Below are positions 601-16,689 of a stretch of DNA of 57,381 nucleotides, piece by piece. Each line of letters starts with the position of its first letter. The first letter of the stretch is position 1. Position numbers and translations under genes: made by a program. This DNA comes from a virus. Its lineage: Duplodnaviria > Caudoviricetes. The notes under the pieces are model-generated. The model saw only the letters and a list, made by a program, of their open reading frames with translations. It had not been told where the DNA came from and made no database searches. The DNA lies in the IMG/VR virus record IMGVR_UViG_3300042896_000260, positions 1 through 57,381 of that record, one strand, 5' to 3'.

Positions 601-626
601 CAGAATTCGGCGAGAGCCGGATACCC

Positions 627-649
627 GGCGCACGACGTGCGTCTTTTTT
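627..649 (+). terminator. Putative intrinsic terminator
   Basis: GCGCAC-gac-GTGCGT hairpin followed by a T6 run. Confidence 0.45.
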
Positions 650-668
650 AACCAACTGGAGCATTTAA

Positions 669-1418
669 ATGGCAAAGACGAATCTGGCAGTCAAGGAAGC
701 TGAACAGTTCGAACTGGTAACTAACGAGGCACCGGAGTGGCTCAAGCAGGGCGCGGCACGGGGCGCGGAGAATGTCGGCACTGACGACATGATCATCCCC
801 CGGATCGAGCTCGTGCAGGCGCTGTCCCCGGCACGTAACAAGAAGGACGCGGCCTACATCGAGGGCGCGGAAGAGGGCATGCTCTTCAACAACGTCACGC
901 GCGAACTCTACGGCGAAGCGGTGACGGTGGTGCCGGTGTACTACACCAAGCAGTTCCTGATCTGGAAGGACCGCAAGCAGGGTGGTGGCGGCAGCAACGG
1001 CTTCCGTGGCGCGTTCGCGACCCGGGAACTCGCCGAGGCCGAGATCGCTCGACTGGGCGAGGACGGCCTGGAGGCTACCGACACGGCTCAGCACTTCGTG
1101 CTCGTCCGCAGCGGCGACGGGTGGACTGAAGCGGTGCTGTCGATGGCCAAGTCCAAGATGAAGGTGAGCAAGCGTTGGAATTCGCTGATTCGGATGTCGA
1201 ACACGGACTCTTTCGCACGTGCCTATAAGCTCTCCTCGGTCACCGAGACTAACGCCCGCAACGAATCGTACTTCAACTACAACGTGACCCCTCTGGGCTA
1301 CGTTGCCAAGGAGATCTACGAGCGTGCCGAGAAACTGTACGAGACGATCCGTTCGGGCAACGTCAAGGTCAGCAATGACTACGATTCCGAGCCTGTCGTT
1401 GCCGACAGCGAGTATTGA
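669..1418 (+). CDS. Putative ssDNA-binding/annealing protein
   Basis: DDMIIPRIELVQALSP motif typical of phage SSB-like proteins in PolA replication modules; acidic C-terminus; GGAG RBS. Confidence 0.55.
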   Translation: MAKTNLAVKEAEQFELVTNEAPEWLKQGAARGAENVGTDDMIIPRIELVQALSPARNKKDAAYIEGAEEGMLFNNVTRELYGEAVTVVPVYYTKQFLIWKDRKQGGGGSNGFRGAFATRELAEAEIARLGEDGLEATDTAQHFVLVRSGDGWTEAVLSMAKSKMKVSKRWNSLIRMSNTDSFARAYKLSSVTETNARNESYFNYNVTPLGYVAKEIYERAEKLYETIRSGNVKVSNDYDSEPVVADSEY

Positions 1419-1468
1419 TGTGACCCGGGGCCGTGCCGTCTGGTGCGGCCCCTCTACCGGAGACCAAA

Positions 1469-1759
1469 ATGGCTACCAAAAAGAGCGAAGCGGCTGCGCT
1501 GCAGGATGATTTTAAAGAAATGCCGAGCACGATGCCCGAGCCGGTCGCACCACCGCCCGTAGTGTATCATCCTCTGTCCGGGGACCAAGAGCGTCGCGTC
1601 GCGAAGGTCAAGGCCGATTTCAATGAATTGATCGGGTATATCAAGACCCTGCGCGATTCGGTGCACGACGCCGAGACGCAGCGTATGTATTCCGTCGCCG
1701 TCACCAACGCTGAGACCGCCAGTATGTGGGCAGTCAAGGCCATCACGCACCAGGGCTGA
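1469..1759 (+). CDS. Acb2/Tad1-like helical hairpin protein (candidate cyclic-nucleotide sponge)
   Basis: YHPLSGDQ...R-MYSVAVTNAETASMWAVKAIT resembles the YHxP...RxxSLAxTxLExAxMWAxKAI pattern; GGAG RBS before ATG 1469. Confidence 0.6.
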   Translation: MATKKSEAAALQDDFKEMPSTMPEPVAPPPVVYHPLSGDQERRVAKVKADFNELIGYIKTLRDSVHDAETQRMYSVAVTNAETASMWAVKAITHQG

Positions 1760-3174
1760 TGAGAGTCGAGGCCATCTACGGGCCTCCCGGCACGGGCAAG
1801 ACCACGGAGTTACTGCGTCGAGTGAAGCACACCCGGGACACCGGGGTGCAAGCCGAGCGCATCGCTTTCGTGTCCTTCACCCGTGCTGCGGCGAGCGAGG
1901 CGCTGTCGCGTCTTGGGCTCAAGCGGTCGAATAACGTGAGCACGATCCACGCGATGGCGTTCAGGCATCTGGGTCTGAGGCAAATGCAGGTGGTCGATCA
2001 CGTTAAACTCAAGGAATTCGCGAAGGCGGTGGGAGTGCCGATCATCGGCAAGTCACCAGAAGACGACGAGGAGCGTGCAGATGGGGATTTCTACCTCGAC
2101 CTACTCAACTACGCACGAAGCACATTCAGCGTACCAGAGGAGGTCTACGACGTCTCGGACCGACCGGGCACGAGATCAGAATTCGGGATGTTCGTTCGGG
2201 CGTACGCTGAGTGGAAACGTACATACGGCTATTACGACTTCACCGACATGTTGGAGAGAGCGGCGAAAGGTGGTATCCGTGCGGATGCCGAAGTCGTATT
2301 CGTCGACGAGGCTCAAGACTTATCACCTCTTCAGTGGGCTGTTGTCGACAAGATCTGCAAGCGTGCACACGAAGTGCATCTCGCGGGCGACGACGATCAG
2401 GCCATCTACACGTGGTCAGGAGCAGATCCTCACGGTATGGCACGATTCACGGACCGGCACAAGGGTCATAGCCACGTTCTGTCGCTCTCGCATCGACTTC
2501 CTGTTGCAGTCCACGAAAGATCTCAAGCGCTCATCAATCGAGTCATGCTCCGAGTGGATAAGGAATTCAGTTCCAAAGGACATCTGGGACTGGTCCGCCT
2601 ACACGGTTCGATCAACTCGGTGGATATCCGCCACGGGCAAGATACGCTACTTCTGGGACGGACGCATTCGGTCCTGCGCGAAGTTGAGCAATTGCTCATC
2701 GAAAGGCGTGTTCCATATTCCCGCGAATCCGGTCGCCCCGGTATGTATCAGAACAAGTACGCCGCCGGAGTCCGTGCCTTTAATAAGCTCAAGCGCGGGG
2801 GCCACATTACAGACGGAGAGCGTAACGCTATTTACAACATTGCCACTACCGACGCACTTAAACGAATGGACGACGGTGACTACAAGTACCTCATCGACCG
2901 CCCCTTCTACGTCTGCCTCAACGTCCCCGCCCGAGCCGTTGACTTTTACGCGGATGCTGACCTTGATGCGGAGCCTACTATACGCCTTTCTACTATCCAT
3001 GCTTCTAAGGGTCACGAAGCGGATCAAGTGATCCTGCTGACCGACATGACGACGCGTGTGCAGCAGACAGCGGACAAACACCCGGACGACGAGATTCGGG
3101 TGTTCTACGTCGGCATGACGCGCAGCAAGAACATTCTCGACATAGTGGAGGGCTATAACGGATTCAAACTGTAG
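1759..3174 (+). CDS. UvrD/Rep-like superfamily 1 DNA helicase
   Basis: GPPGTGKT (Walker A), VDEAQD (Walker B), [23 protein letters not shown]; ATG overlaps the upstream TGA. Confidence 0.92.
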
Positions 3175-3177
3175 ACA

Positions 3178-3206
3178 TTGATGTATTATTCCACCCGTGG
3201 TATACT
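3178..3206 (+). promoter_or_regulatory. Sigma70-like promoter with CACCCGTG box, upstream of ssb-dpoZ-purZ
   Basis: TTGATG-17 bp-TATACT with extended -10 TG; ATAGAGGAC RBS at 3222-3230. Confidence 0.7.
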
Positions 3207-3233
3207 TATACCGTCACTGACATAGAGGACCAA

Positions 3234-3503
3234 ATGAGCAAGCAATACGACAACACCAATTCCGGTATCCTCGCGCGTAACGAGCGCAAGGAGAAGGATA
3301 CCCACCCCGACTTCACGGGGTCGATCAACGTTGGGGGCACCGAATACTGGCTGTCTGCCTGGGTGAACGAGGGCCGTCCTGGCACGAAGTTCGAGGGCCG
3401 CAAGTACTTTTCGATCAAGGTCAATCCGAAGGATCAGGGTGGTGCTTCCCGGCCCGCGCCGCCCAGGGGCGACACGTACGTCGACGAAGACATCCCATTC
3501 TGA
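3234..3503 (+). CDS. Small SSB-like protein (DUF736-like)
   Basis: [25 protein letters not shown] and an SSB-type acidic tail EDIPF. Confidence 0.7.
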
Positions 3504-5341
3504 TGACTGCCTTCCCGCGCATTGACCGCGTGCCTTACGTGGTCATCGACACGGAGACCACCGGGCTGTCGTGGTGGAAGGACCGAGTATTCGGGATTTC
3601 CATCGCTCTGCCCGGGGGCGACTCCCTGTACTGGGACATCCGCACCGACCCGCAGGTCATCCAGTGGCTCAACGATCTGGCTAAGGACGACCGCGTGGGC
3701 GTGTGGGTGGGGCACAACCTCAAATTCGACTACCACTTCCTGCGCGAGGCCGGATTCGAGATGCCGCGCGACAAGATCGACTGCACGATGGTGCGGGGCG
3801 CTCTGATCAACGAGCACGAGCCGTCCTACTCGCTCGATTTCCTGGCCCGCAAGTATGCTAAGCAGCAGAAGGACGAGGAGATCTACGAGGAGATGGCGAA
3901 GCTCTTTGGCGGTCGGCCTACCCGGTCGGCCCAGATGCCGAACATCTCGCGTGCCCCGGTGCACGTCGTCGCGAAATACGCCAAGCAGGACGTGATCGCC
4001 ACTCAGGCGCTGTACGAATGGCAGCAGGGCGAGATCGAGCGGCAGGGTCTGCACAAGGTGCACGGTTTCGAGCGTCGGCTCATGCCGGTGATCATCGACA
4101 TGGAGACCGAGGGCGTGGAGGTCGATGTGGAACTGGCCGAGAAGGCCGTTCGTGGCCTCACGGAGCGCATCGACACGATGCAGGGCGATCTCAATACCCT
4201 CGCGGGCTTCGAGGTCAACCCGAACCCCTCCGGATCGATCACGGACCTATTCAAGCCGACACTGGGCGACGATAACGAGTGGTATCTGGTTGACGGCACC
4301 AAGGCCGACAAGACCGAGGGCGGCAAGGCGTCCATCAACGCTGAGTGTCTGCGTCGCATGAAGCATCCCGCTGCCAAGATGATCTTGGACCTGCGCAAGA
4401 TGCTCAAGACGCGTGACACGTTCCTGTCCGGCCACATCCTGGGGCATCAGCATGACGGAATCATCCACTGTAATTACAATCAGACGAAGAATGATAGCGA
4501 GGCTGGCACGGGTACCGGGCGCTTATCTATTACAAATCCCGCTCTTCAGCAGATACCATCTCGAGACGTGGCAATCAAGTCCCTGGTTAGGCCCATTTTC
4601 AAGGCTGATCTGGGAGCGAAGTGGTTGGGCATGGATTGGTCCCAGTTTGAATTCCGAGTGGCTAATCATTACGGTCAGGTGCCCGCGATTCTGAAGGCGT
4701 ACCACGACAATCCGAATCTCGATTTCCACCAACTGGTGAGCGATATGACCGGGATTCCGCGAAATGCGCAGTACGCGGGCGGGCCGTCTTCCAAGGCGAT
4801 CAATCTCGGGCTCGCGTTCAACATGGGGTCGGGGCGACTGGCGCAGGAGTGCGGGCTACCATACACCGAAGAGGAGGGGCCGAATGGCAACGTCTACCTC
4901 AAGGCGGGGCCAGAGGCGATGGCGCTGTTCGAGAAGTACCACGCCGCCAATCCCGGAATGCGCAACACCGCGCAGAAGGCGAGCAGTATCGCCAAGGAGC
5001 GTGGCTACGTGCATTCGGCGATGGGACGGCACATCCGATTCCCAGGTGGGCAGTTTGTGCACAAGGCGTCGGGCTTGATCTATCAGGCCACGTCTGCTGA
5101 CTGCATGAAGCAGAAGCTCATCGAACTGGATGCGTATTTGAAGGAACATCAGTGCGGGCGGCTGCTGCTGACCGTGCACGACGAGGTGGGTATCTCCCTG
5201 GACAACGACTCGGTGCATCACGCGGAGGAAATCGCGCGGATCTACACGACGTTCGATGGCCGCGAGTGCCCGATAGCATTGCGGGTTCCGATCACGTGTG
5301 ATTGGGGCCTTGGTGATAACTGGTTAGAGGCGAAGGGTTAA
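3503..5341 (+). CDS. dpoZ: Family A DNA polymerase with 3'-5' exonuclease, DpoZ type
   Basis: Exo DTET and HNLKFD; TGRLS; motif A DWSQFEFR; atypical motif B KAINLGLAFNMG; ASGLIYQ; motif C TVHDE; directly upstream of purZ. Confidence 0.8.
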   Translation: MTAFPRIDRVPYVVIDTETTGLSWWKDRVFGISIALPGGDSLYWDIRTDPQVIQWLNDLAKDDRVGVWVGHNLKFDYHFLREAGFEMPRDKIDCTMVRGALINEHEPSYSLDFLARKYAKQQKDEEIYEEMAKLFGGRPTRSAQMPNISRAPVHVVAKYAKQDVIATQALYEWQQGEIERQGLHKVHGFERRLMPVIIDMETEGVEVDVELAEKAVRGLTERIDTMQGDLNTLAGFEVNPNPSGSITDLFKPTLGDDNEWYLVDGTKADKTEGGKASINAECLRRMKHPAAKMILDLRKMLKTRDTFLSGHILGHQHDGIIHCNYNQTKNDSEAGTGTGRLSITNPALQQIPSRDVAIKSLVRPIFKADLGAKWLGMDWSQFEFRVANHYGQVPAILKAYHDNPNLDFHQLVSDMTGIPRNAQYAGGPSSKAINLGLAFNMGSGRLAQECGLPYTEEEGPNGNVYLKAGPEAMALFEKYHAANPGMRNTAQKASSIAKERGYVHSAMGRHIRFPGGQFVHKASGLIYQATSADCMKQKLIELDAYLKEHQCGRLLLTVHDEVGISLDNDSVHHAEEIARIYTTFDGRECPIALRVPITCDWGLGDNWLEAKG

Positions 5342-5342
5342 T

Positions 5343-6455
5343 ATGGACAAATTAGACGTGGTGGTGGATCTGCAATACGGTAGCACCGGCAAGGGATTGA
5401 TCGTCGGCTATCTGGCCGAAAATGGCCCGTACGACACCGTGGTCACAGCGTGGGCACCAAATGCGGGGCACACCTACATCGACAAGAAGGGGCGCAAATT
5501 CGTGCACACGCATCTGGCCAACGGCATCGTAGGCCCCGCAGTGCGCAAGGTCATGCTCGGCCCGGGCTCGCTGATCAACCCGCTGAGCCTGATGGCTGAG
5601 ATCTGGGAATGCGAGGACGTGGTCAAGAGCAAGGGCATCCGCATCATGATCCACCCGCACGCGGCGGTCGTGACTCAGCGGCATATCGACGAGGAAGCTG
5701 GCCCGATGACCAAGATCGGCTCGACCAAGAAGGGTGTGGGTGCTGCCATGATTCAGCGCATCCGGCGCGACCCGGACGACACGAATATCGCCGCGAACTG
5801 CGCAGCGCTGAAGGAATGGGTAGTGACCGTGGACGAGTACCGCCGGGAATTGAAGGATTCCGAGTACGTCCTGGTGGAGGGTGCCCAGGGCTACGGGCTG
5901 TCGATGTATCATGGGTTCTACCCGTACACCACCTCGCGTGACGTGTCGCTCTGGCAGATCCTCGCAGACTCCGGCATTCAGGCAGCGGACGTGCTCGACA
6001 AGTACAAGATGACCAAGGTCCGCGCCATCGGCACCTGCCGCACCTTCCCGATCCGCGTGGCGAACCGATTCGATGAGAATGGCACCCAGGTGGGCTACTC
6101 CGGCCCGTGCTACGACGACCAGTGCGAGATCACATTCGAGGACATTGGACAAAAGACCGAACTCACGACGGTGACCAAGCTGCCCCGCCGGATCTTCACG
6201 TTCAGCGGCAAGCAGATCAAGGAAGCGATCGACCACAACGCCGTGTACGAGGTGTTCCTGAACTTCGTGAATTACGTGCGCACCGAGACCGAACTCATCG
6301 ACATCGTGCAGCGCATCGAGCGCAAGGACACCCAGGTGCGTTGGATCGGCACCGGCCCCGCTCACAAGGACGTGCACGAGATTAATGGGGATCGCGCCCA
6401 GCGTATGCAAAAGATCGTATCTGTCTGGAAGGAATGTAAAAATGCTGCTGCCTGA
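5343..6455 (+). CDS. purZ: N6-succino-2-amino-2'-deoxyadenylate synthase PurZ
   Basis: PurA-fold protein with QYGSTGKG in place of GDEGKG, plus NAGHT, EGAQG, YPYTTSR, RTFPIRV, TTVTKLPRRIF and FLNFVNY (NFxN, ATP-using type). Confidence 0.93.
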   Translation: MDKLDVVVDLQYGSTGKGLIVGYLAENGPYDTVVTAWAPNAGHTYIDKKGRKFVHTHLANGIVGPAVRKVMLGPGSLINPLSLMAEIWECEDVVKSKGIRIMIHPHAAVVTQRHIDEEAGPMTKIGSTKKGVGAAMIQRIRRDPDDTNIAANCAALKEWVVTVDEYRRELKDSEYVLVEGAQGYGLSMYHGFYPYTTSRDVSLWQILADSGIQAADVLDKYKMTKVRAIGTCRTFPIRVANRFDENGTQVGYSGPCYDDQCEITFEDIGQKTELTTVTKLPRRIFTFSGKQIKEAIDHNAVYEVFLNFVNYVRTETELIDIVQRIERKDTQVRWIGTGPAHKDVHEINGDRAQRMQKIVSVWKECKNAAA

Positions 6456-6936
6456 ATCCGAACTGCACACCGACGAGATGAACGACCTGCCGTGGTCGCT
6501 CCATCCGGAGAATAACGCCATGATACTCGATGCGAAAGGCTCGCCCGTCGCGTCGTTCGAGGTGCGCAACCCGTACCGTGGCGTGATGGGCAACTGCGAC
6601 AAGAACGCCGACCTCGCGGTGCGGGCGGTGAACGCCTACAAGAAGCGCGGTGGTGCCGACATCCGGCAACTGCAGGAGCGGATCACCAAGTGGGCCGACG
6701 CGAAGTTCCCGAATCGCACGACCGCCGACATTCTGCTCAAGCTTTACGAGGAACTTGGCGAGTACGCGCGTGACCCGAAATCCTCGCTCGAACTGGGCGA
6801 CGTGTTCATCCTGCTGCTCGACGTGGCGCACCGCAACGGCATCGACATCCACCGGGCGGTCGAGGAGAAGATGGAGATCAACGAGTCCCGCCAGTGGCGG
6901 GTGGACGAGAACACTCGAATCATGAGGCACGTATGA
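6442..6936 (+). CDS. mazZ: MazZ-like (MazG/DUF550-type) dGTP/dATP pyrophosphohydrolase with an extra N-terminal domain
   Basis: C-terminal WADAKFP...KLYEELGE...ELGDVFILLLD...KMEINESRQW is the MazG-like ExxE/ExxD pattern; overlaps the purZ stop. Confidence 0.78.
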   Translation: MLLPESELHTDEMNDLPWSLHPENNAMILDAKGSPVASFEVRNPYRGVMGNCDKNADLAVRAVNAYKKRGGADIRQLQERITKWADAKFPNRTTADILLKLYEELGEYARDPKSSLELGDVFILLLDVAHRNGIDIHRAVEEKMEINESRQWRVDENTRIMRHV

Positions 6937-7139
6937 AAGATACTGCATTCAGCCACTGGTACGACACCATGTTCGGCAACGTCCTGGGCGCGGAGGACGA
7001 CGAGAATCGTAACGCGGTGCGAAAGATCTGGAATGGCGTGATTGAGCACGTCGCGCAGTCGGTGGAATTCAACAATTTCGAGCCGATCAGCGCGGAGGAG
7101 ATCGCCGCCCGTATTCGTATGATGAAGGAGCGTGCATAA
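6933..7139 (+). CDS. Hypothetical protein between mazZ and datZ
   Basis: 68-aa ORF, translationally coupled on both sides (ATGA and TAATG overlaps). Confidence 0.65.
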   Translation: MKDTAFSHWYDTMFGNVLGAEDDENRNAVRKIWNGVIEHVAQSVEFNNFEPISAEEIAARIRMMKERA

Positions 7140-7702
7140 TGGCACTCACGATCGCCGAGCAGATGCGGGCAAGCCACGTCACGCGGTGGCACATTGTGGC
7201 CACCTCGCGCAAGCAGTCGCTCGCTGAACACTTGTTCAACGTGTGCATTCTGTCGGTCGATTTGGCCGGTCGTGTCTACTGGCCCGGGATTCTGCACGAT
7301 TCGGAAAAGATGAAGCTCATGGATTACGCGCTCAGGCACGACCTGATCGAGGTCCGCACCGGCGACATCCCCACACCGTTCAAGAAGGTGCTCAAGGCGC
7401 TGATCGGCGCTGACGTCATGCACAGGGCCGAATCCGAGGTCGACAACGACCAATCAGGATTCTGCCGTTTGTACGCGGGCACCGACATCGAGCGCATCGT
7501 GAAGATGGCCGACATGATCGACGCGATCCAGTTCTGCACCGACACCGGTGTGGGGCTGCACGCAAAAGGCGTAATCGACGGTCTGCGCCAGGATTTCGAC
7601 GCGATGGTGAACCAGTACGAGAAAGAGTGCCCGCATTTGCGCATCCGCGAGGGGTGCCGGTCGATCTGTCGTGATCTCGGTGTCTGGGGAGGGATGCTAT
7701 GA
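7139..7702 (+). CDS. datZ: HD-domain dATP triphosphohydrolase DatZ
   Basis: RASHVTRWHIV, QSLAEH, HDLIEVRTGDIPTPFK, VKMAD; closely resembles S-2L DatZ motifs as recalled; lies in the purZ cluster. Confidence 0.85.
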   Translation: MALTIAEQMRASHVTRWHIVATSRKQSLAEHLFNVCILSVDLAGRVYWPGILHDSEKMKLMDYALRHDLIEVRTGDIPTPFKKVLKALIGADVMHRAESEVDNDQSGFCRLYAGTDIERIVKMADMIDAIQFCTDTGVGLHAKGVIDGLRQDFDAMVNQYEKECPHLRIREGCRSICRDLGVWGGML

Positions 7703-7923
7703 AGTGTGTACAATGCGGCGGTAGTACCAAGGTGATGACCACCTACAACAACGAGAATGGCAGCATCCGAAGGCGTCGCCGGTGCCTGGAGTGTGACTAT
7801 CGGTTCACCACCCGGGAGAAAGCCGACCCTCCCGAGGAACAACTGTATCCGTACGGGATTCGGGTTGACGGGTTACCCCACCCGTGTTATAATCGGGATT
7901 CCGAGGAACTTATAGAGGACTGA
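7699..7923 (+). CDS. NrdR-N-terminal-like zinc ribbon protein without ATP-cone
   Basis: MKCxxCG...TKV...IRRRRRCLECDYRFTTRE matches the NrdR Zn-ribbon pattern; only 74 aa. Confidence 0.75.
   Translation: MKCVQCGGSTKVMTTYNNENGSIRRRRRCLECDYRFTTREKADPPEEQLYPYGIRVDGLPHPCYNRDSEELIED
7865..7893 (+). promoter_or_regulatory. Sigma70-like promoter with CACCCGTG box, upstream of the deacetylase gene
   Basis: TTGACG-17 bp-TATAAT with extended -10; ATAGAGGAC RBS at 7912-7920. Confidence 0.78.
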
Positions 7924-7924
7924 C

Positions 7925-8755
7925 TTGACCCCGATTTTCTACACCCCCGCCCAGACCGCTGACCACGACTTCATCTCGGTCAGCAAGATCCCCGAGTTCG
8001 TGCGACAGGCCGACCGCAAGACCAACAGCGATATCGAGCCGCTGACCCCGACCGATCTGGCCCGGGCGCACGACCCCGATTTCGTGGACGACGTGCTTAC
8101 GTGCCGAGTCGCGAACGGATTCGGAAACAGGAATCCGGCGCTCACCGACACAACCCGCTACACGACCGGGAACATCGTCCGGGCGACCGAGTGGGTGATT
8201 CAGGAGGGCATGCTCGTGGCGTGCTCGGCCACACAGGGATTCCACCACGCACACTACGCTAGTTGCTACGGGTACTGCACGTTCAACGGCCTGATCCTGG
8301 CCGCGCGGCGTGCTGTCGATCTCCTGGGCTTGAGGGTGCTGATCATCGACGGCGACGGCCATGAGGGTGACGGCACCGACGACATCATCGACAAGACGGG
8401 TCTCTACCACGACGTAATCAACATCGACCGTCGACAACTGGCGCATGGTGTTCGCCCGACTTGGAACGCCCGGATGTGGATGCATTACTTCACCCATTTG
8501 ATCAATCTGCACGAGCCGGGTATAATACTATACCAAGCGGGGGCCGATGCCTGGGAAGAAGATCCGTACGGCGCGGGGTACCTGAGCAAAGAGGGGATGC
8601 GTGATCGCGATAGCGGGTTGTTCCAAGCCGCTGCAAATGCTGTGATCCCCGTGGTGTGGAACCTAGCCGGTGGGTACACCGATCCGATGCAGGGCACGAT
8701 CGACATCCATCTGCAAACGCTCCAAGTGAGCGACGAGGTGTACTATGGCCGGTAA
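7925..8755 (+). CDS. Histone deacetylase-family Zn-dependent amidohydrolase
   Basis: AHDPDFV, GFHHA, GYCTFN, IDGDGHEGDGT, YQAGAD and LAGGY motifs; TTG start after the phage RBS. Confidence 0.88.
   Translation: MTPIFYTPAQTADHDFISVSKIPEFVRQADRKTNSDIEPLTPTDLARAHDPDFVDDVLTCRVANGFGNRNPALTDTTRYTTGNIVRATEWVIQEGMLVACSATQGFHHAHYASCYGYCTFNGLILAARRAVDLLGLRVLIIDGDGHEGDGTDDIIDKTGLYHDVINIDRRQLAHGVRPTWNARMWMHYFTHLINLHEPGIILYQAGADAWEEDPYGAGYLSKEGMRDRDSGLFQAAANAVIPVVWNLAGGYTDPMQGTIDIHLQTLQVSDEVYYGR
8498..8526 (+). promoter_or_regulatory. Possible internal sigma70 promoter inside the HDAC gene, facing the 8745 gene
   Basis: TTGATC-17 bp-TATAAT. Confidence 0.45.
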
Positions 8756-9929
8756 TGCCCCGATGTCCTTCGTGGACCTGATGCGCGGCGTGAGCAAGGT
8801 GCACAAGGGTCTCGCCGAGAGCGTGCCCGGTGCCAAACGCATTCCGCAGGAGATGTCCTCCAAGGTCGAGAAGATGATGCCGACGGAGGTGCTCGAGGAG
8901 TACAACCGGCGAAAGATGTTCGGCCAGACCTCCACCGGCGAGCCCTACCGTGGCGTGATCCGCGAGTCGATCGGGGAGGCACCGGGTACCGGCGGGCGTC
9001 TGCCGAAGAGAGGGCATCTTCTCGTGGTGCCGGAGTCCAAGGCTAGCCGCTACGCGCAGGGGCTCGAGCCCATGGCGGGCGTCAGCGACATGCGATTCAA
9101 GCGCTACCAGAACATGGGAGCCGAGCCGCCGCTGACCGCCTATACCTTGGGCGATGTCGACCAGATGAAGATGGCCGGTCAGCCGAAGGCCGACATCTTT
9201 GACATTAACGCACTCGACATCGGACGTGGCATGGGGCCGATGCAGTACCGTGCGATGTACGACATGATCAACGCGGGCGGCGACGTGAATCAGGCGTCGT
9301 TCCTGACCGACATCAACGTGCTGCGGCGTCTGGGCAACGTGGCACCGCTGTATCTGGACGACCCCGCCCGCGTGGCCCATCGCGGTATCATGCCGATCAG
9401 CGAGTCGCCAAAGCCCGCCGGGTCTTACAGTCAGCAATTGTTCTCACAGCCGATCTCCTCGAAAGGTGGGGAGCAGTACGCTCTGCAGAAACTGTTCGAG
9501 GACTACGACGATTTGGTCGATGAGGCGATGACCATGCAACCCCGCGACCTGCGTGGCATGAGCCCCGACGTCATGGCCGGGTTGCTTTACTCACGCGAGG
9601 CGCAGTTGAACAAGGCGTACGGTCCGGAGTCGCAAGGCGGTATGATGGCGCTGCCTCAGCACCTGGGGAACAAGGACGTATTGTTCCGTCTGACGGAGCC
9701 CTACCGTTCTGCGGCTGCACGAGTTAACGAGACTGGCGTGCGTGCCGGCATCGGACCCCACACACTCGGGCGTGCTCGCACCACCGAAGAGGCGATCTAC
9801 CGGATGTTGCGTCAGGGTTCGGACCCGGACGACATCGCGAACGACCTGCTGCGCGAGATGCGCGGAGAGACCGGCGGCATGAAGGGACGCTATGCAAAAG
9901 GGGGACTCGCAAGTGCACTCCAAGGTTGA
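8745..9929 (+). CDS. Hypothetical protein (394 aa) ending in a YAKGG motif
   Basis: GAGGTG RBS; no recognisable family; C-terminal GRYAKGGLASALQG. Confidence 0.75.
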   Translation: MAGNAPMSFVDLMRGVSKVHKGLAESVPGAKRIPQEMSSKVEKMMPTEVLEEYNRRKMFGQTSTGEPYRGVIRESIGEAPGTGGRLPKRGHLLVVPESKASRYAQGLEPMAGVSDMRFKRYQNMGAEPPLTAYTLGDVDQMKMAGQPKADIFDINALDIGRGMGPMQYRAMYDMINAGGDVNQASFLTDINVLRRLGNVAPLYLDDPARVAHRGIMPISESPKPAGSYSQQLFSQPISSKGGEQYALQKLFEDYDDLVDEAMTMQPRDLRGMSPDVMAGLLYSREAQLNKAYGPESQGGMMALPQHLGNKDVLFRLTEPYRSAAARVNETGVRAGIGPHTLGRARTTEEAIYRMLRQGSDPDDIANDLLREMRGETGGMKGRYAKGGLASALQG

Positions 9930-10185
9930 CATCACCACAATCGTGGACGAGCGGGGCTCGCAGTACGGCGATTTCGCCGAGCAGGGGCAGATCGCTCAGG
10001 CGCTGAAGGACTACATGCGCGAGCACATCGGGTGGGACCGGCTGAGTGCCCATCAGCGCGAGGCGCTCGACATGATCATGCACAAGGTCTCCCGCATTCT
10101 GAACGGGAACCCGAACCACAAAGACTCCTGGGTCGACATCGAGGGTTACGCCCATATCGTGGCGATCAGGATACCGGGGGATTGA
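9913..10185 (+). CDS. DUF6378-like protein
   Basis: ERGSQYGDF...KVSRILNGNPNHKDSWVDIEGYA; start codon uncertain (GTG 9913 chosen). Confidence 0.7.
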   Translation: MHSKVDITTIVDERGSQYGDFAEQGQIAQALKDYMREHIGWDRLSAHQREALDMIMHKVSRILNGNPNHKDSWVDIEGYAHIVAIRIPGD

Positions 10186-10225
10186 CAAGGGTATAGCACC
10201 GGTGTTATACTTCAGGTACTGGATC
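10182..10225 (+). promoter_or_regulatory. Early promoter repeat copy 1
   Basis: TTGACA-18 bp-TATACT; 34 bp (10192-10225) identical to 12541-12574. Confidence 0.85.
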
Positions 10226-10256
10226 TTCCCAGTGAAACACATAGAGGACACGCCAA

Positions 10257-10541
10257 ATGGCACAAGTTGCAAGCATCATCACCGAGTCCATGGTCGACGA
10301 GTTGGCGCAAGTGCGCGACCAGTTGAAGGCACTGGAGGCCCGCGAGAAGTTCCTCAAGGAGCAATTCCGCAACGAGGGCGCGGGCACCTATCGTGGCCGT
10401 CACTACCAGATCGAGATCGTGTTCACGACGCAGAAGAACACGGACATGGACGCGGTGCGGGCAGAATTGGGGGCCGCATGGATCGCGTCACACTACAAGA
10501 CCATCGAGAAGATGAACATTCGCCAGATGGAACTCGTATGA
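10257..10541 (+). CDS. Small coiled-coil hypothetical protein
   Basis: ATAGAGGAC RBS; VDELAQVRDQLKALEAREKFLK. Confidence 0.75.
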   Translation: MAQVASIITESMVDELAQVRDQLKALEAREKFLKEQFRNEGAGTYRGRHYQIEIVFTTQKNTDMDAVRAELGAAWIASHYKTIEKMNIRQMELV

Positions 10542-10771
10542 AAGAGATCTACACCACCAAGACGGGGGTGAAGATTGGCCTCGCCTACGAGCGCCCCTTG
10601 CGATTTACCGTTGGTCAAGACATGGAGCGCCTACAGACGGCGCTTCTCAGCCAGAGGAGAAAGATTATGCCGAACATGAGTACTCAGCACCTAGTCGACA
10701 TCTTGTGTTGGATTCTGGCGGTCGTTGCCCTGGTCGGCATGTTCGCCATAGGCAGTCACGTCTTCGCGTGA
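10538..10771 (+). CDS. Hypothetical membrane protein
   Basis: ATGA overlap; C-terminal hydrophobic helix ILCWILAVVALVGMFAIG. Confidence 0.65.
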   Translation: MKEIYTTKTGVKIGLAYERPLRFTVGQDMERLQTALLSQRRKIMPNMSTQHLVDILCWILAVVALVGMFAIGSHVFA

Positions 10772-10820
10772 TATGATCGGAATGCCGGGTTCATCTCCGC
10801 CCGGTGCAGAAGCCATTAAC

Positions 10821-10846
10821 AGGAGCCCTCCGGGGCTCCTCTTTTT
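10821..10846 (+). terminator. Intrinsic terminator
   Basis: AGGAGCCC-tccg-GGGCTCCT stem followed by CTTTTT. Confidence 0.75.
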
Positions 10847-10861
10847 ACATAGAGGACCAAA

Positions 10862-11620
10862 ATGAGCCGAATCGTGTGGACCAAAGCCGAGAAAGCGCTG
10901 ATCTCGGACGAACTCGAGCGTATTTTCGCATCGATGCCCTGGAAGACCAATCTCGATGCCCTGCGAGAGGCGCAGCGAGTCCTGCCCGCAGCGAGGCATA
11001 TAGTAGTAAACCACGGCAGGGCGTGGAGCCACAAGGAGAGGATCCGTCTGGCGCGCGCTGCTGCGGGGCAGGTGCTCAAGAAGCGAGCCGAGGCCGAGAA
11101 GACCCGCAAGGAGGCGTTCGAGGTGGCCGTCGCTACTGGGATAGCCCGACCCGTGCAGGAGCCCAAGGAAGGTACCACGGCGAGGCTCGCTCGGGTATTC
11201 GACGAGATCCTGGACATCCTGGCCGACAAGGTGGCGCAGCGGCTGCAGCAACCGGGGGTCTCGATCAGCACGAAGGCCATGCCGCTGCCCGAGCGGGTCA
11301 AGCACAACCCCGAGCCGCCCAGTGCACCCCGCGTGGCCAAGACCGGCGTGCTCGTGATCGGGCTCCTGGGCGATCGGGTCGAGGCGTTGCCTATCTACAA
11401 CACCCTGGACATCACGTTCCTACCGACCGAACAAGCGCTGTCGAAAGACTACGTGAAGCGTGCCTACACGATCCTGATGACGAAATTCATCAATCACGCG
11501 GTGCAGGACAAATACCGAAAGGCCAACAACCTGCACTACTGCAACGGCGGCACGAGCGACCTAGCGAGAATCCTGATCTCGATCGCCGTCAAGGAGGATA
11601 TGGATCTTGCAAGGGTATAG
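10862..11620 (+). CDS. Hypothetical protein with a possible DUF2325-like C-terminal domain
   Basis: ATAGAGGAC RBS; ILMTKFINH...GGTSDL; family assignment weak. Confidence 0.65.
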   Translation: MSRIVWTKAEKALISDELERIFASMPWKTNLDALREAQRVLPAARHIVVNHGRAWSHKERIRLARAAAGQVLKKRAEAEKTRKEAFEVAVATGIARPVQEPKEGTTARLARVFDEILDILADKVAQRLQQPGVSISTKAMPLPERVKHNPEPPSAPRVAKTGVLVIGLLGDRVEALPIYNTLDITFLPTEQALSKDYVKRAYTILMTKFINHAVQDKYRKANNLHYCNGGTSDLARILISIAVKEDMDLARV

Positions 11621-11635
11621 CACCCGTGTTATAAT
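11607..11635 (+). promoter_or_regulatory. Early promoter with GCACCCGTG box
   Basis: TTGCAA-17 bp-TATAAT; shares AAGGGTATAGCACC with the 10182 copy. Confidence 0.8.
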
Positions 11636-11666
11636 GGGTTTCCATCAACTGATAGAGGACAGCAAA

Positions 11667-11876
11667 ATGGTCAAGACTACTGAATTCCGATTCGCTTCCG
11701 GTGCCGAGGCCGTCGCCCATTTCTACAAGCAGGGCTTTGAGACCATCGAGTGGGTCAAGACTGAGGACGGGTCGCCCGACGTGCGCGTCATGGACGACGG
11801 CATCAACATCGTGCAGATCCGTCGCGCCGAAATGCTCGATTGGGTGGCCACGCTGATCGAAGTGGAGGGCATCTGA
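11667..11876 (+). CDS. Hypothetical protein
   Basis: ATG after ATAGAGGAC RBS. Confidence 0.7.
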   Translation: MVKTTEFRFASGAEAVAHFYKQGFETIEWVKTEDGSPDVRVMDDGINIVQIRRAEMLDWVATLIEVEGI

Positions 11877-11877
11877 C

Positions 11878-12108
11878 ATGGTGGCGCACGCTCTGCGCCT
11901 GGGGCGCTACACCGAGATCGCCGGATCGGTGCGTGGGAAGTTCAAGACATACACCGACGGGCAGTTGTCGTTCGCCTACAACGACATCGTGCAGACCATC
12001 TCGATCATGGGCGACTCGATCGACCCTGAGTATGCCACTAAGCTCGACGCCGAGATGGACGAAATCCTGACTGAGATGAGCAAGCGTATGAAAGGAGCCA
12101 AGAAATGA
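11878..12108 (+). CDS. Hypothetical protein
   Basis: GGAGG RBS; tightly packed in the operon. Confidence 0.65.
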   Translation: MVAHALRLGRYTEIAGSVRGKFKTYTDGQLSFAYNDIVQTISIMGDSIDPEYATKLDAEMDEILTEMSKRMKGAKK

Positions 12109-12245
12109 CACGCGACGAATTCCTGCGACTGTTGGCCGAGTGGATCGAGCGCGAGGCCGCGCAGCACCCCGATTCTGATGACGCCGAGCCCTTGCGTGCA
12201 GCGGGCGACCGCCTTGTAGACGAAGCCCTGGAGTACGTGCCATGA
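12105..12245 (+). CDS. Small hypothetical protein (46 aa, not in the ORF track)
   Basis: AAGGAG RBS and ATGA overlaps at both ends; MTRDEFLRLLAEWIERE...EYVP. Confidence 0.6.
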   Translation: MTRDEFLRLLAEWIEREAAQHPDSDDAEPLRAAGDRLVDEALEYVP

Positions 12246-12526
12246 ACATCCCCGAGCGCACCCTTGACCTGATCGACGAACTCGCCAATCACGGATTTCA
12301 GCCCCGGTCGTATTCGGGGCGTTTCATGAACGGCAAGAAATGCGTGGCGTGCGTGATGCCGTGGAACAGCGGCTACACACTGGACGACTTTCCGCAGGAG
12401 GGCCAGATCTGGGACAATCTCGGTCTGGACACGATCATCTACTGGCCCGGGCACGAGTGGACGCCCGCCGTCGAGAAATACGTCGAGACGGTCTTTGACC
12501 CTTCCGGTGATGGGGTCAACGAGTAA
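12242..12526 (+). CDS. Hypothetical protein
   Basis: RSYSGRFMNGKKC...DNLGLDTIIYWP; coupled to the upstream ORF. Confidence 0.7.
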   Translation: MNIPERTLDLIDELANHGFQPRSYSGRFMNGKKCVACVMPWNSGYTLDDFPQEGQIWDNLGLDTIIYWPGHEWTPAVEKYVETVFDPSGDGVNE

Positions 12527-12530
12527 ATAA

Positions 12531-12574
12531 TTGACAATACTATAGCACCGGTGTTATACTTCAGGTACTGGATC
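12531..12574 (+). promoter_or_regulatory. Early promoter repeat copy 2
   Basis: TTGACA-18 bp-TATACT; 34-bp identity with 10192-10225. Confidence 0.85.
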
Positions 12575-12619
12575 GCGAAACGACCAGTAATCATCAACCC
12601 GACATAGAGGACAGACATC

Positions 12620-13135
12620 ATGACCAAGATCGCCATCATCAAGAGCACCAACGAGCAAGTGACCGTTCTGTCGGTCACCGGTGGTTGGACCACGGTTCGC
12701 GACCAAGCCGGCACCGAGAAGAAGGTGCGCAATGGCGCACTGACTGAGCCGGTCGAAATCACCGCCCCGACCACCGCGAAGCTCGTGAAGGCAAAGGCCG
12801 AGAAAGTGGCAAAGGAGCCCAAGGCACCCCGCGCCAAGAAGCCCCTGAATGAGCGTCTGAATGGCGTGGTCGAGTCCCTGTACCTGCAGTTCTACCAGGG
12901 CTACACCACCACCCGCAAGGACGGCACGAAGGTCCGCTCGATGGACAAGGGCGACAGCGTGGCCCAGTCGCTGCGCGGTCTGTCGATGGACGAGGTGTAC
13001 AAGCACGCCGCCAAGATCACGCACATCGGCGTGGCCGACCTGACCTCGCGATTCGCGCACCTGAACCCCGGCATGCAGCGCATGAACCTGGGCAACATGA
13101 TCCGCAAGTCCATGAAGGAGCAGGCAAATGTCTGA
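12620..13135 (+). CDS. Basic hypothetical protein
   Basis: ATAGAGGAC RBS; C-terminal HLNPGMQRMNLGNMIRK. Confidence 0.78.
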   Translation: MTKIAIIKSTNEQVTVLSVTGGWTTVRDQAGTEKKVRNGALTEPVEITAPTTAKLVKAKAEKVAKEPKAPRAKKPLNERLNGVVESLYLQFYQGYTTTRKDGTKVRSMDKGDSVAQSLRGLSMDEVYKHAAKITHIGVADLTSRFAHLNPGMQRMNLGNMIRKSMKEQANV

Positions 13136-13358
13136 TATCTACTCGATCACCTTCTGGCTTCGTAACTTCGGCTACTCCACCTACCAAGTTACGAACGCTG
13201 ATGACGCCCTGCACGCGATGAACGTTCTGGTCGACATGTTCGAGAACAAGGAGCGCGTGCACATCAAAGACTTCAAGATTCGCGAAGTCAAGATCGTGCA
13301 CAAGATCGACACCGACTGGCCGTGGATCGACGCCGCGCAGGAGCAAGCAAATGCCTAA
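13128..13358 (+). CDS. Hypothetical protein
   Basis: AGGAG RBS; overlapping start. Confidence 0.65.
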   Translation: MSDIYSITFWLRNFGYSTYQVTNADDALHAMNVLVDMFENKERVHIKDFKIREVKIVHKIDTDWPWIDAAQEQANA

Positions 13359-13557
13359 GGCACGCATCAAGATCACGACCGGCGAATTCGAGGGGCTGAT
13401 GCTCCTCGAAGGACGGCATATTCGGTTCACCACCAAAGTGCACCAGTTCGGGACCGACGCGGAGTTCAGCAAGCTCCTGCCCGAGGACCCGGAAGTCGAC
13501 GTGTGGAAGGCGTTCAAGGCGCTTGATACCTGGATCGACGAGAACATGAGAGGCTGA
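13351..13557 (+). CDS. Hypothetical protein
   Basis: AGGAG RBS; overlapping start. Confidence 0.65.
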   Translation: MPKARIKITTGEFEGLMLLEGRHIRFTTKVHQFGTDAEFSKLLPEDPEVDVWKAFKALDTWIDENMRG

Positions 13558-13558
13558 C

Positions 13559-13678
13559 ATGAAGTGGCTCGGTGACTTGTTCGCCCTGGCCTGGGCGGTG
13601 TCTGTGGTGCTTGTGGTCTTCCTCGGGCCATTCGTCGCGTTGGCAATACTGATCAGTTACTTGTGGGGGATGCTATGA
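13559..13678 (+). CDS. Small hydrophobic membrane peptide (39 aa, not in the ORF track)
   Basis: GAGG RBS; MKWLGDLFALAWAVSVVLVVFLGPFVALAILISYLWGML. Confidence 0.55.
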   Translation: MKWLGDLFALAWAVSVVLVVFLGPFVALAILISYLWGML

Positions 13679-13902
13679 GCCTACGAGAAGCAGCGCAGCA
13701 GGCGCTTGAGGCGTTGGAAGACATCGCCGACGAGTTGATTTCCCCATACAACGATCCCATTGGCAAAGCAATCCTCGAACTCCGCACCGCGCTCACAGTG
13801 CCAGGAAACGACTACGAACGGGGCTTTGTGGACGGTATGTCCCATCAGGCCAAGTCCAGTGTGGATAGGGCTGTAAATGCGATGGCAAGGGGGCAGGAAT
13901 GA
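13675..13902 (+). CDS. Hypothetical protein
   Basis: MSLREAAQQALEALE...; ATGA overlap. Confidence 0.65.
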   Translation: MSLREAAQQALEALEDIADELISPYNDPIGKAILELRTALTVPGNDYERGFVDGMSHQAKSSVDRAVNAMARGQE

Positions 13903-14258
13903 CCCGCGACGACATCATCCGCATGGCAGAGGAGTGCGGCATACCTGAGTTTGAGAACAACGAGTCTCAGGCAGACAACATCCTGCGCTTTGCCGCCCTT
14001 GTTGCCGCTGCCGAGCGAGAGAAGGTAGCCAGGTGGATGATGGGGCGTGGTTACGCCACGGGCCACGGCGACACCATAGAAGACCTGCTGCAAGAACTTG
14101 ATTGGCAGATTGCTGAAAACTGGAATAGGGCGCTGATCAATGGAATCACGACCGAGCGTGAGGCGTGTGCAAAGGTGTGCGAAACGTACGATCACGCTGA
14201 CCCGCTTGGCGTATCTACTGAGTGCGCCGCAGCCATCAGAGCAAGGGGGCAGGAATGA
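13899..14258 (+). CDS. Hypothetical protein flanked by 18-bp direct repeats
   Basis: MTRDDIIRMA...RFAALVAAAERE...EREACAKVCE...AAIRARG. Confidence 0.7.
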   Translation: MTRDDIIRMAEECGIPEFENNESQADNILRFAALVAAAEREKVARWMMGRGYATGHGDTIEDLLQELDWQIAENWNRALINGITTEREACAKVCETYDHADPLGVSTECAAAIRARGQE

Positions 14259-14395
14259 ACTGGCCCTTCCCTCCCCCTGGTGGCCCGAAGCCACCCGACC
14301 CGCGCGAAATGCGCCAGTGGGAGCGACGTCAAAGGCAGAACGACCGACAGGAGCGGCAGCGCGAACGTGACCGGATGCCCCCGGCACCCTTCTGA
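14255..14395 (+). CDS. Small Pro/Arg-rich peptide (46 aa, not in the ORF track)
   Basis: ATGA overlap; MNWPFPPPGGP...MPPAPF. Confidence 0.55.
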   Translation: MNWPFPPPGGPKPPDPREMRQWERRQRQNDRQERQRERDRMPPAPF

Positions 14396-14405
14396 CGCGA
14401 AATAC

Positions 14406-14435
14406 TTGTGCAGTATATGGCACGGGTGTTATAAT
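14406..14435 (+). promoter_or_regulatory. Early promoter with GCACGGGTG box
   Basis: TTGTGC-18 bp-TATAAT with extended -10, followed by CATCAAC...ATAGAGGAC leader. Confidence 0.75.
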
Positions 14436-14470
14436 GTGTTCATCATCAACCGACCGATAGAGGACACGAA

Positions 14471-14674
14471 ATGACGCAAGATTACTCGCTCACCCTGCAA
14501 GACAGCACTGGTCGCACCACGACCCTGCATATCGATGGCGCATCGATCGACGAGGCGATCGCTTCCGGCGTCGAAGCCTGGGAGGCTAAGGAAAACGCCG
14601 AGTCTAATGCCTTCGGCAACGCCATCTCGAATGGCGTGATCGGCGATGACGCTTGGCTCGTCGCTCACGAATAA
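14471..14674 (+). CDS. Acidic hypothetical protein
   Basis: ATAGAGGAC RBS. Confidence 0.7.
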   Translation: MTQDYSLTLQDSTGRTTTLHIDGASIDEAIASGVEAWEAKENAESNAFGNAISNGVIGDDAWLVAHE

Positions 14675-14702
14675 TCCACCCACCACATAGAGGACACACA
14701 TC

Positions 14703-14921
14703 ATGGCACAGCCCCGACTGATCACCCTGGAATCCGACAAGACGTACGCCACCCGCGCCAACGCCATCAAGGCCGTCGAGAAGGCCTTCGCGGGCCACGA
14801 AGACGGCGACATCCTGCTGTACTTCGTGAACCAGGACGAGAAAGGCCGGTTCTTCCCGGTGTTCATCGGCGAGCGGGCGATCCGCAACATGGTCCATTTC
14901 CGCTTCAACGTGGTGGCCTGA
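14703..14921 (+). CDS. Hypothetical protein
   Basis: ATAGAGGAC RBS; KTYATRANAIKAVEK...GRFFPVF. Confidence 0.72.
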   Translation: MAQPRLITLESDKTYATRANAIKAVEKAFAGHEDGDILLYFVNQDEKGRFFPVFIGERAIRNMVHFRFNVVA

Positions 14922-14923
14922 TC

Positions 14924-15376
14924 ATGGCACACCCGATCCACGCAGTCATGACCGAACATTGCCCCCGGGGCACGGACGACCCGTGCTACGTGCCCTGGTG
15001 GGCGAAAGGTGAGTACGCCAGGAAGAACGGCACGAAATACACGACCGAGGAGGGCTCGGCGATCGATGCGGGCCGGGTCAAGACGGAAGGCCACGGGAGG
15101 CGTTCGGAGCCCGCGCCGGTATCTAAGTACCGCCCGGAACCCGAGAAGGCCACGGAGACCCCAAGGAAGGCTCAGGAGACCCCTTCGAGGGTGACCAGGA
15201 CCCTCCCGGTCACGACGGACGACCAAGCCGCCGAGTTAGTAGCCACTTACAGGGATCGGAAGGGGCGCGAGTTCCTGTGCAGGAAATACGGCCTGGACCC
15301 AGGGATTCTCGACGCCCCCAACGCCGGTATCCAATCGATGCGTCTGCGCAACGCGCTAAGGAAGGTGATCAGATGA
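14924..15376 (+). CDS. Hypothetical protein
   Basis: Operon packing; C-terminal PNAGIQSMRLRNALRK. Confidence 0.65.
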   Translation: MAHPIHAVMTEHCPRGTDDPCYVPWWAKGEYARKNGTKYTTEEGSAIDAGRVKTEGHGRRSEPAPVSKYRPEPEKATETPRKAQETPSRVTRTLPVTTDDQAAELVATYRDRKGREFLCRKYGLDPGILDAPNAGIQSMRLRNALRKVIR

Positions 15377-16106: not shown

Positions 16107-16115
16107 TGGTTTAAT
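16087..16115 (+). promoter_or_regulatory. Putative sigma70 promoter facing a hairpin cluster and element A
   Basis: TTGACG-17 bp-TTTAAT with extended -10 TG. Confidence 0.5.
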
Positions 16116-16124
16116 CGAGTCCGA

Positions 16125-16682: not shown

Positions 16683-16689
16683 TCGCGCC

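Follow-up and report, generated by a model that had tools for sequence, protein, structure and literature searches.

The complete virus record IMGVR_UViG_3300042896_000260 (IMG/VR; 57,381 bp, 100% complete by CheckV), referred to in its whole length as the window, harbors a gene for a histone-deacetylase (HDAC)-family deacylase just downstream of the genes for a 2-aminoadenine (Z) genome. The deacylase gene heads a moron-like cassette composed of a promoter, a ribosome-binding box, the deacylase gene and a partner gene, orf394; the architecture of the cassette is conserved, and the cassette is gained or lost as a unit. The deacylase is not a step of 2-aminoadenine synthesis and occurs independently of purZ. 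We propose that the cassette encodes an active deacylase of the class-IV branch, which together with orf394 would reset an acylation-controlled host process or defence; the chances of this proposal being right are about even. The carriers form a clade of ~55–59 kb lake-water phages that probably infect Burkholderiales.

Gain and loss of the cassette as one unit

A search anchored on an alignment of clade PurZ proteins yielded 73 loci with at least 3.5 kb of downstream sequence, 50 of which contain the deacylase and 23 of which do not. Most of the deacylase-less loci (21 of 23) represent more distant Z phages (PurZ 47–59% and polymerase 39–53% identical), which lack the Zn ribbon and orf394 as well. 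L209 and L170, the remaining two, are members of the same clade (PurZ 82%), and in both the Zn-ribbon gene is followed directly by the DUF6378 gene; the best promoter site in the equivalent 160 nucleotides (nt) scores 5–6 of 12, compared with 11 of 12 in the window. The L209 genome (G008) is complete (56,368 bp, terminal repeats, 100%), and deacylase and orf394 are absent from it genome-wide in a check for which the window record served as the positive control. Because L209 and L170 lack the promoter, the deacylase and orf394 together, the promoter, ribosome-binding box and two genes constitute one unit. DUF6378 lies outside this unit, since the cassette-less relatives retain it, and the block is unnecessary for a Z genome, since a complete Z phage of the same clade lacks it.

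The gene order around the cassette was established from a viral contig search with the deacylase family, which returned 195 stretches; the best 80 were kept together with two found earlier. Among these, 72 loci (L002–L073; 47–87% identity) belong to one phage clade, in which the order helicase, polymerase, PurZ, MazZ, DatZ, Zn ribbon, deacylase, orf394 and DUF6378 is maintained. All 72 loci contain orf394 and DUF6378; the Zn ribbon is found in 68 (the other four begin at the deacylase) and PurZ in 50, the contig ending first in the other 22. Wherever a clade locus extends far enough, the deacylase comes directly after the Z cassette. In the window, where nearly all genes lie on the + strand, this region is organized as follows (aa, amino acids; ORF, open reading frame):

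3503..7702, + strand: Z cassette as a whole
3503–5341, + strand: family-A DNA polymerase
5343–6455, + strand: PurZ, with the P-loop GSTGKG
6385–6936, + strand: MazZ-like pyrophosphohydrolase, followed by a small ORF before DatZ
7139–7702, + strand: DatZ-like HD hydrolase
7699–7923, + strand: NrdR-like Zn ribbon of 74 aa without ATP-cone (PF22811, E 5e-11)
7865..7893, + strand: sigma-70-type promoter, TTGACG-17-TATAAT with an extended -10 TG, within the 3' end of the Zn-ribbon ORF
7912..7920, + strand: ribosome-binding box ATAGAGGAC, 4 nt upstream of the TTG start
7925–8755, + strand: deacylase (PF00850)
8745–9929, + strand: orf394, 394 aa, no family
9892–10185, + strand: DUF6378 gene (PF19905, E 6.8e-11), in the flank and outside the cassette
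10182..10211, + strand: next promoter box, TTGACA-18-TATACT, ending the interval that opens at 7865

The promoter at 7865–7893 matches the consensus at 11 of 12 positions and was the top-ranked sigma-70 site in a promoter scan of positions 1–17000. A sigma-70 consensus of at least 10/12 lies 59–85 nt upstream of the deacylase start in all 56 distinct clade upstream regions, a count that leaves out loci with fewer than 130 nt upstream and duplicate upstream sequences, and in 47 of the 56 the promoter is perfect (12/12, with TG). The retention of the consensus in 56 of 56 regions implies that the promoter is more than a chance match. The ribosome-binding box occurs in eight exact copies, only on the + strand and between 3222 and 14695, preceding early-region genes. 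With one mismatch allowed, 14 matches were found versus 7.9 expected (14 were reached in 3 of 100 shuffles), and similar boxes precede most clade homologues. A sequence-only reading of the window had described a promoter and ribosome-binding site of the deacylase's own, two genes after datZ. Both signals are present and kept across the clade, and the position agrees as well, with DatZ followed by the Zn ribbon and then by the deacylase.

A long ORF directly follows the deacylase gene in 72 of 72 loci (371–430 aa in 68, longer in four). Its longest-ORF start overlaps the deacylase stop in most of them, as in the window (8745 versus 8755). The DUF6378 gene is located downstream of both and shares their promoter-to-promoter interval.

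Independence from purZ and evolutionary history

The synteny of purZ and the deacylase within the clade reflects vertical inheritance in one lineage and is no proof of a functional link. More distant viral loci (33–37% identity), which comprise a jumbo-myovirus group, one MoxR/CobT-VWA phage and one lambdoid phage (NinB/NinG/RecT), have no Z genes nearby (9 of 9). The adenylosuccinate synthetase encoded 8–9 kb from the homologue in the jumbo group is a canonical PurA, scoring 447.7 bits against the Pfam model versus 103.8 for the window PurZ and carrying GDEGKG in place of GSTGKG; an Asp-to-Ser change in the P-loop is a hallmark of PurZ. Three complete phage records contain a homologue and no PurZ, namely the 103,921-bp phage, Rhodococcus phage E3 and a 595-kb megaphage. 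Only 5 records of the phage collection have a deacylase match (three uncultured and two Rhodococcus), whereas PurZ/PurA-like proteins match 215, at least 196 of which stand under organism names with zero deacylase matches; the cultured Z-phage groups are without the deacylase.

A bacterial search covering one genome per prokaryote species returned 509 stretches, of which the best 80 (32–52% identity) were examined. No Z gene lies within the fetched flanks of any of the 80, the exceptions being a 26% PurA-like and a 36% UvrD-like match. The proposal that the deacylase, the Zn ribbon and DUF6378 form an extended Z module is contradicted by these observations: homologues occur independently of purZ in the distant viral loci, the bacterial loci and three complete phages, and the deacylase is missing from 23 of 73 PurZ-anchored loci, among them a complete genome of the same clade. 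Nor do the three genes behave as one module, as the cassette-less relatives keep both flanks and DUF6378 is widespread in non-Z phages. It matches 267 phage records, and most of these come from groups in which PurZ matches are rare or absent (Salmonella, 54 records versus 3; Klebsiella, 46 versus 2; Brucella, 41 with DUF6378). For Z-genome biology the result is negative but useful, in that the deacylase should not be counted as a Z-pathway gene.

Several neighborhoods met in these searches deserve mention in their own right. In the jumbo-phage contigs (L074–L082 except L078 and L081; up to 260 kb), a homologue of 285–298 aa lies directly after the tail sheath and tube genes, and a canonical PurA (GDEGKG) and a GDP-mannose dehydratase are found 7–9 kb from it. 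In the complete 103,921-bp phage (L078, 10001–13985), genes for a MoxR-type AAA ATPase and a CobT-like VWA protein come after the homologue, which makes a second, independent deacylase-VWA neighborhood besides that of the bacterial relatives described below. In the Vibrio phages K227 (OZ195736.1) and VP2 (NC_005879.1), a second and unrelated group of Z phages, a DUF6378 homologue is located ~1.3–1.5 kb from PurZ on the same strand.

The deacylase gene has a history of its own within the clade. The window and L002 are 97.5% identical over 11.6 kb, and nucleotide identity falls to 77–91% between 8000 and 8500, only inside the deacylase gene. The synonymous divergence (dS) of the deacylase is 0.26 in this comparison versus 0.06–0.075 in the polymerase, PurZ, DatZ and orf394, and its ratio of nonsynonymous to synonymous divergence (dN/dS) is 0.27. 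This pattern suggests that a divergent deacylase allele was swapped in by recombination while purifying selection continued. A variant contig over 8212–8495 from another lake sample fits such an allele replacement.

A quick tree was built from 101 rows out of 162 extracted sequences, after 56 near-identical and 5 odd-length sequences had been dropped. The clade proteins and ten Burkholderiales chromosomal copies group together with a Shimodaira–Hasegawa-like approximate likelihood ratio support of 100, apart from the other bacterial and phage homologues. The tree places the ten copies inside the phage clade; nevertheless, phage monophyly was not rejected by the approximately unbiased test (p 0.758), and the constrained tree was 25 log-likelihood units higher. 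The closest bacterial homologues (L085 and L087–L092, on contigs of Burkholderiales metagenome-assembled genomes; 48–51% identity) adjoin a divergent gene pair encoding a 431-aa VWA protein and a 314–392-aa protein with a MerR-type helix-turn-helix. The surroundings of the Burkholderiales copies include WYL regulators, ADP-ribosylglycohydrolase, DUF2201, NERD helicase and SbcCD-like genes and insertion sequence elements. This neighborhood looks island-like and may represent an undescribed system; it is not a known defence system. No single conserved partner was found across the bacterial loci, the commonest neighbor cluster (VWA) being present in 9 of 80.

Predicted activities and possible role

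The deacylase ORF encodes 276 aa from a TTG start, which agrees with the conserved N-terminus MTPIFY of its relatives, and matches PF00850 (Hist_deacetyl) with an E-value of 1.6e-29 and 103.7 bits against a cut-off of 27.9. The intact set of HDAC motifs reported by the sequence-only reading was confirmed: HH (H107 H108), DxDxH (D142-G-D144-G-H146), GAD (G206 A207 D208) and GGY (G249 G250 Y251) are all present, and the catalytic and metal residues are invariant in an alignment of 32 sequences (48–93% identity). Residues H107 and H108, D144, H146 and D208, and Y251 align with the matching motifs of Vibrio cholerae HdaH (VcHdaH), and their roles are assigned by this homology. The AlphaFold2 model of the protein has a predicted local distance difference test score (pLDDT) of 91 and a predicted template-modelling score (pTM) of 0.92; Foldseek returned 456 PDB matches at E ≤ 0.001, with HDAC-family chains throughout among the matches listed. 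A word-indexed search put the number of relatives at 1,462 (E ≤ 0.001); no model in PHROGs, PADLOC or NCBIfam matched the deacylase. Among 16 longer homologues (323–511 aa), one weak HTH_3 match was the sole lead to a fused domain. A separate protein in the representative library, P0186, has 4,333 aa, in which the deacylase is matched 22 times in separate stretches (28% identity, E 5.8e-40), and is apparently a giant tandem array of HDAC-like domains.

The best matches in sequence and fold, together with a pocket motif, provide good support for a compact, class-IV-like, predicted Zn-dependent enzyme. In a PDB profile search VcHdaH (9GKV/9GKY) stood far ahead (E 2.8e-33), followed by bacterial entries of ~305–319 aa (9RJE, 9GZ5 and 5JI5), and the Foldseek leaders were 9GKY and 9GKV and then Leptospira HDAC11 (9GZ5), with template-modelling (TM) scores of 0.81–0.83. 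According to Graf et al. 2024 (PMC11532494), VcHdaH and human HDAC11 both belong to cluster 5, and the RPP foot-pocket motif marks robust deacetylases, VcHdaH having SGGYHH and HDAC11 GGGFHH instead. The phage enzyme likewise has the RPP motif replaced (S-A-T-Q-G-F-H-H at 101–108, with L-A-G-G-Y at 247–251), and QGFHH is invariant in the phage family. The same paper describes VcHdaH as a weak lysine de-decanoylase of unknown natural substrate and leaves small-molecule substrates open (PMC11532494). The closest crystal structures contain fatty acids, decanoic (C10) and dodecenoic (C12) acid; by analogy with these two crystals and from the motif, the phage enzyme may prefer acyl chains longer than acetyl.

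The partner gene is more elusive. The orf394 family is fast-evolving (26–38% identity to the window copy) and clade-restricted, with 36 database matches, none of which carries a Pfam domain. No match to orf394 was obtained in Pfam, PADLOC or NCBIfam; a PDB sequence profile returned just two designed proteins (E ~0.5), the ESM Atlas gave scores of ≤ 0.87 to unnamed viral clusters, and neither BLASTP against the bacterial VWA neighbor nor a hidden Markov model of the orf394 family against ORFs of the distant loci gave anything usable. The confident AlphaFold2 model (pLDDT 85, pTM 0.88) displays a putative GNAT-like fold at ~47–231 and a helical C-terminal domain, and the protein has a conserved RY-x-K/R-GG tail. 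Nearly all of the 50 best rows of an exhaustive VIA-align comparison align residues ~47–231 with GNAT acyltransferases, among them GNA1, HAT1, NatD, PAT, AAC(6') and AtaT. The GNAT strand-helix junction is the cofactor site, and the family invariants G164, Y168, D173, T188, N191, R194, R195 and N198 are positioned at that junction and in the following helices. Among viral structures, orf394 comes closest to a protein annotated as "large polyvalent protein associated domain" (E 8e-3, TM 0.43), and Pfam LPD37 scores below threshold (14–15 bits) over the same region in 3 of 26 members. The GNAT-like fold of orf394 is thus a lead from modelling rather than a finding. A complex prediction for deacylase and orf394 gave a score of 0.13 and a mark of 0.32, which is evidence neither way.

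The cassette is located between the Zn-ribbon gene and DUF6378, at the edge of the Z-DNA replication module, and would be transcribed early by the host RNA polymerase, because its promoter matches the consensus. The deacylase would act on lysines of host or phage proteins and strip from them an N-acyl group that may be longer than acetyl, an activity suggested by its nearest characterized relatives. Orf394, with its GNAT-like core, may be the acyl-transferring "writer" or a substrate adaptor for the deacylase, and the pair would reset an acylation-controlled host process or defence to the benefit of the phage. A role in host takeover or counter-defence is suggested by the on/off distribution of the cassette, the exchange of alleles, the Acb2/Tad1-like neighbor, the likeness of orf394 to polyvalent proteins and the island-like bacterial context. 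Among the functions suggested earlier from the sequence, reversal of acylation-based host control is favored and action on an acylated nucleotide disfavored.

Several observations weigh against this proposal. The GNAT likeness of orf394 is weak, with Z scores of 5.6–3.8 that, as the tool warns, may reflect merely a common arrangement; Foldseek of orf394 against the PDB gave no match, and no acetyltransferase Pfam family was matched in 24 members even at E ≤ 5. The acyl-CoA motif of GNAT enzymes, Q/RxxGxG/A, is non-canonical in orf394, only G164 being invariant there. The bacterial neighborhoods are mixed (acyl-CoA synthetase, EutBC, subtilase and histidine kinase), so that conflict is one context among several, and a search of PADLOC-DB 2.0 with the deacylase, orf394, Zn-ribbon and DUF6378 proteins returned 0 families, giving no link to known defence or counter-defence. 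Moreover, there would be no point in making a writer and an eraser from the same operon unless they act on different targets.

The main rival is that the deacylase is a small-molecule or polyamine deacetylase, an auxiliary metabolic gene freeing polyamines or another amine for use in metabolism or in condensing DNA, while orf394 would supply the corresponding N-acetyltransferase. Acetylpolyamine amidohydrolases are part of the HDAC family, and small-molecule substrates are left open for VcHdaH (PMC11532494); the GNAT rows for orf394 also contain polyamine and thialysine acetyltransferases. However, the best matches are cluster-5/class-IV proteins; no acetylpolyamine amidohydrolase (cluster 4) appears among the best 60 profile rows or the Foldseek rows listed, and allele exchange and an on/off distribution suit an arms-race gene better than a metabolic one. 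This alternative is possible, though rather unlikely.

A toxin/antidote or exclusion pair is improbable; here orf394 would modify an essential host target by acylation, and the deacylase would restrict the damage, set its timing or shield phage components. GNAT toxins that acetylate tRNA are known, AtaT and TacT3 are among the GNAT-fold rows for orf394 (Z 4.1 and 3.9), and the two genes are translationally coupled and are gained and lost jointly. Against this, the GNAT likeness is weak, no toxin family was matched by sequence, the eraser comes first and the larger protein second, and we know of no GNAT toxin that is reversed by an HDAC-type enzyme.

More improbable still is that the deacylase, perhaps with orf394, belongs to an extended Z module after all, acting on an acylated nucleotide or on the exocyclic amine of Z-DNA. 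Its position in a replication and nucleotide region, downstream of the DatZ region in all far-reaching clade loci, would fit, and Mom of phage Mu is a GNAT-fold enzyme that modifies adenine in DNA. Nevertheless, the cassette is missing from a complete same-clade Z phage, from another 21 Z-phage loci and from the cultured Z-phage groups; homologues of 32–52% identity occur in bacteria and other phages without purZ; the cassette promoter is separate from the Z genes; and the solved structures nearest to the deacylase are those of enzymes that deacylate protein lysines. The deacylase is unlikely to act in Z or nucleotide chemistry. That the gene is a decaying or inert passenger without a role is hardly credible: the cassette is dispensable in at least one complete clade member, but its catalytic residues are invariant in 32 relatives, dN/dS is 0.27, the promoter is perfect in 47 of 56 regions and the deacylase is retained in 50 of 73 PurZ-anchored loci, an independent count, whereas the figure of 72 of 72 is circular because those loci were found by the deacylase search.

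Under an extended form of the acylation proposal, the cassette would be the first phage-encoded pair of lysine-acyl eraser and writer, expressed from its consensus host promoter as infection begins. Its class-IV-type deacylase and its partner, a new acyltransferase that is GNAT-like and LPD37-related, would together alter acetyl or medium-chain marks on host proteins and so disarm an acylation-gated host response, the Burkholderiales VWA/MerR-type island being the host side. This extension is distinctly unlikely. HDAC-family enzymes are well studied in eukaryotes and poorly understood in bacteria. If the acylation proposal holds, reversible lysine acylation would join the known currencies of phage-host conflict, and a natural substrate would be hinted at for the enigmatic class-IV/HDAC11 branch. 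A natural comparison is available, as the same clade includes phages with and without the cassette and alleles swapped between close relatives.

Other features of the window and comparison with known systems

The left end of the window begins with genes upstream of the Z cassette, in the following order:

Left end, first in order: Pam3 gp33/gp34-like proteins
1433–1756, + strand: Acb2/Tad1 hairpin protein of 108 aa (PF24729, E 2.5e-15)
Left end, between the Acb2/Tad1-hairpin gene and the polymerase: UvrD-type helicase

The ORF at 1433–1756, between the gp34-like gene and the UvrD helicase, encodes a candidate cyclic-nucleotide sponge against the defence systems CBASS and Thoeris. In the Zn ribbon, the TIGR00244 match is confined to the N-terminal part; the C-terminal tail is variable among relatives, and in the window this tail holds the cassette promoter. 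The Zn ribbon had 0 matches in the phage collection, the window PurZ is at most 48% identical to any protein there, and megablast of positions 3000–12000 against the collection gave no close relative. Lake-water and freshwater metagenomes contain the stretch again, in 20 rows from 16 studies, of which two are possibly the source. The single RNA run found (share 0.13) covered 10030–10992 only, outside the deacylase gene, and came from a divergent relative. Two 45-nt promoter boxes (10181–10225 and 12530–12574) are 93% identical to each other, and it is exactly at 10181/10225 that metagenome contigs break or branch (four runs have loose ends there), so that the box acts as an assembly repeat.

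Elsewhere in the window, an HNH endonuclease ORF (PF13392) at 35769–36248 on the + strand has a third-position guanine-cytosine (GC) content of 0.36 compared with ~0.7–0.8 in other genes, and the regional GC content falls to 0.53; the ORF, which lies after the tail-fibre gene, probably represents a recently acquired homing endonuclease. At the right end, an archaeo-eukaryotic-type primase (AEP-TOTE and PriCT-1 domains) and then a SNF2-family helicase are encoded at 53768–57035 on the + strand. Judged by their terminal position, these genes and those of the left end probably make up one replication module.

The closest known counterpart of the deacylase is VcHdaH (cluster 5b), with which it shares the tandem histidines, the D-H-D metal site, the GGY tyrosine and the replacement of RPP by a G-aromatic-HH motif. 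However, identity is only 24–25%, the phage protein is ~40 residues shorter (276 versus 318 aa) and has TQGFHH/AGGY where VcHdaH has SGGYHH/GGGY, and the phage gene possesses a dedicated promoter and a coupled partner gene. HDAC11 of Leptospira interrogans (9GZ5) is the second-best fold match (E 1.4e-14, TM 0.81), crystallized with a C12 fatty acid according to the entry title, although it is only 20% identical to the phage enzyme; no paper on the 9GZ5 structure was found in the literature. The GFHH of the phage enzyme also occurs in the GGGFHH of human HDAC11.

AcuA and AcuC of Bacillus subtilis, a GNAT writer and an HDAC-type eraser of AcsA encoded in one operon, resemble the cassette in that an HDAC-family gene adjoins the gene of a GNAT-fold protein, and several deacylase homologues are labelled "AcuC-like" by the Joint Genome Institute (JGI). 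Nevertheless, AcuC is a cluster-2, class-I-like enzyme (PMC11532494), in contrast to the class-IV-like phage enzyme. Orf394 has no sequence match to acetyltransferase families, and the phage has no gene for an AcsA-type target close by. Rhodococcus phage E3 encodes a phage-borne PF00850 homologue, the "putative histone deacetylase protein" gp202 (32% identity over 82% of the query). However, this phage is unrelated (142.6 kb, without PurZ), and gp202 is flanked by hypothetical proteins and a tail fibre and has a long tree branch. A search of the open-access literature found no study of a phage HDAC-family enzyme or of a deacetylase in Z phages.

Phage morons are accessory genes with their own promoter, known classically from temperate phages and usually flanked by a terminator. 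A scan of the window detected no terminator-like site downstream of orf394, in which the cassette differs from them; it resembles them in that its promoter, ribosome-binding site and two genes come and go together as a block, between flanks that are conserved.

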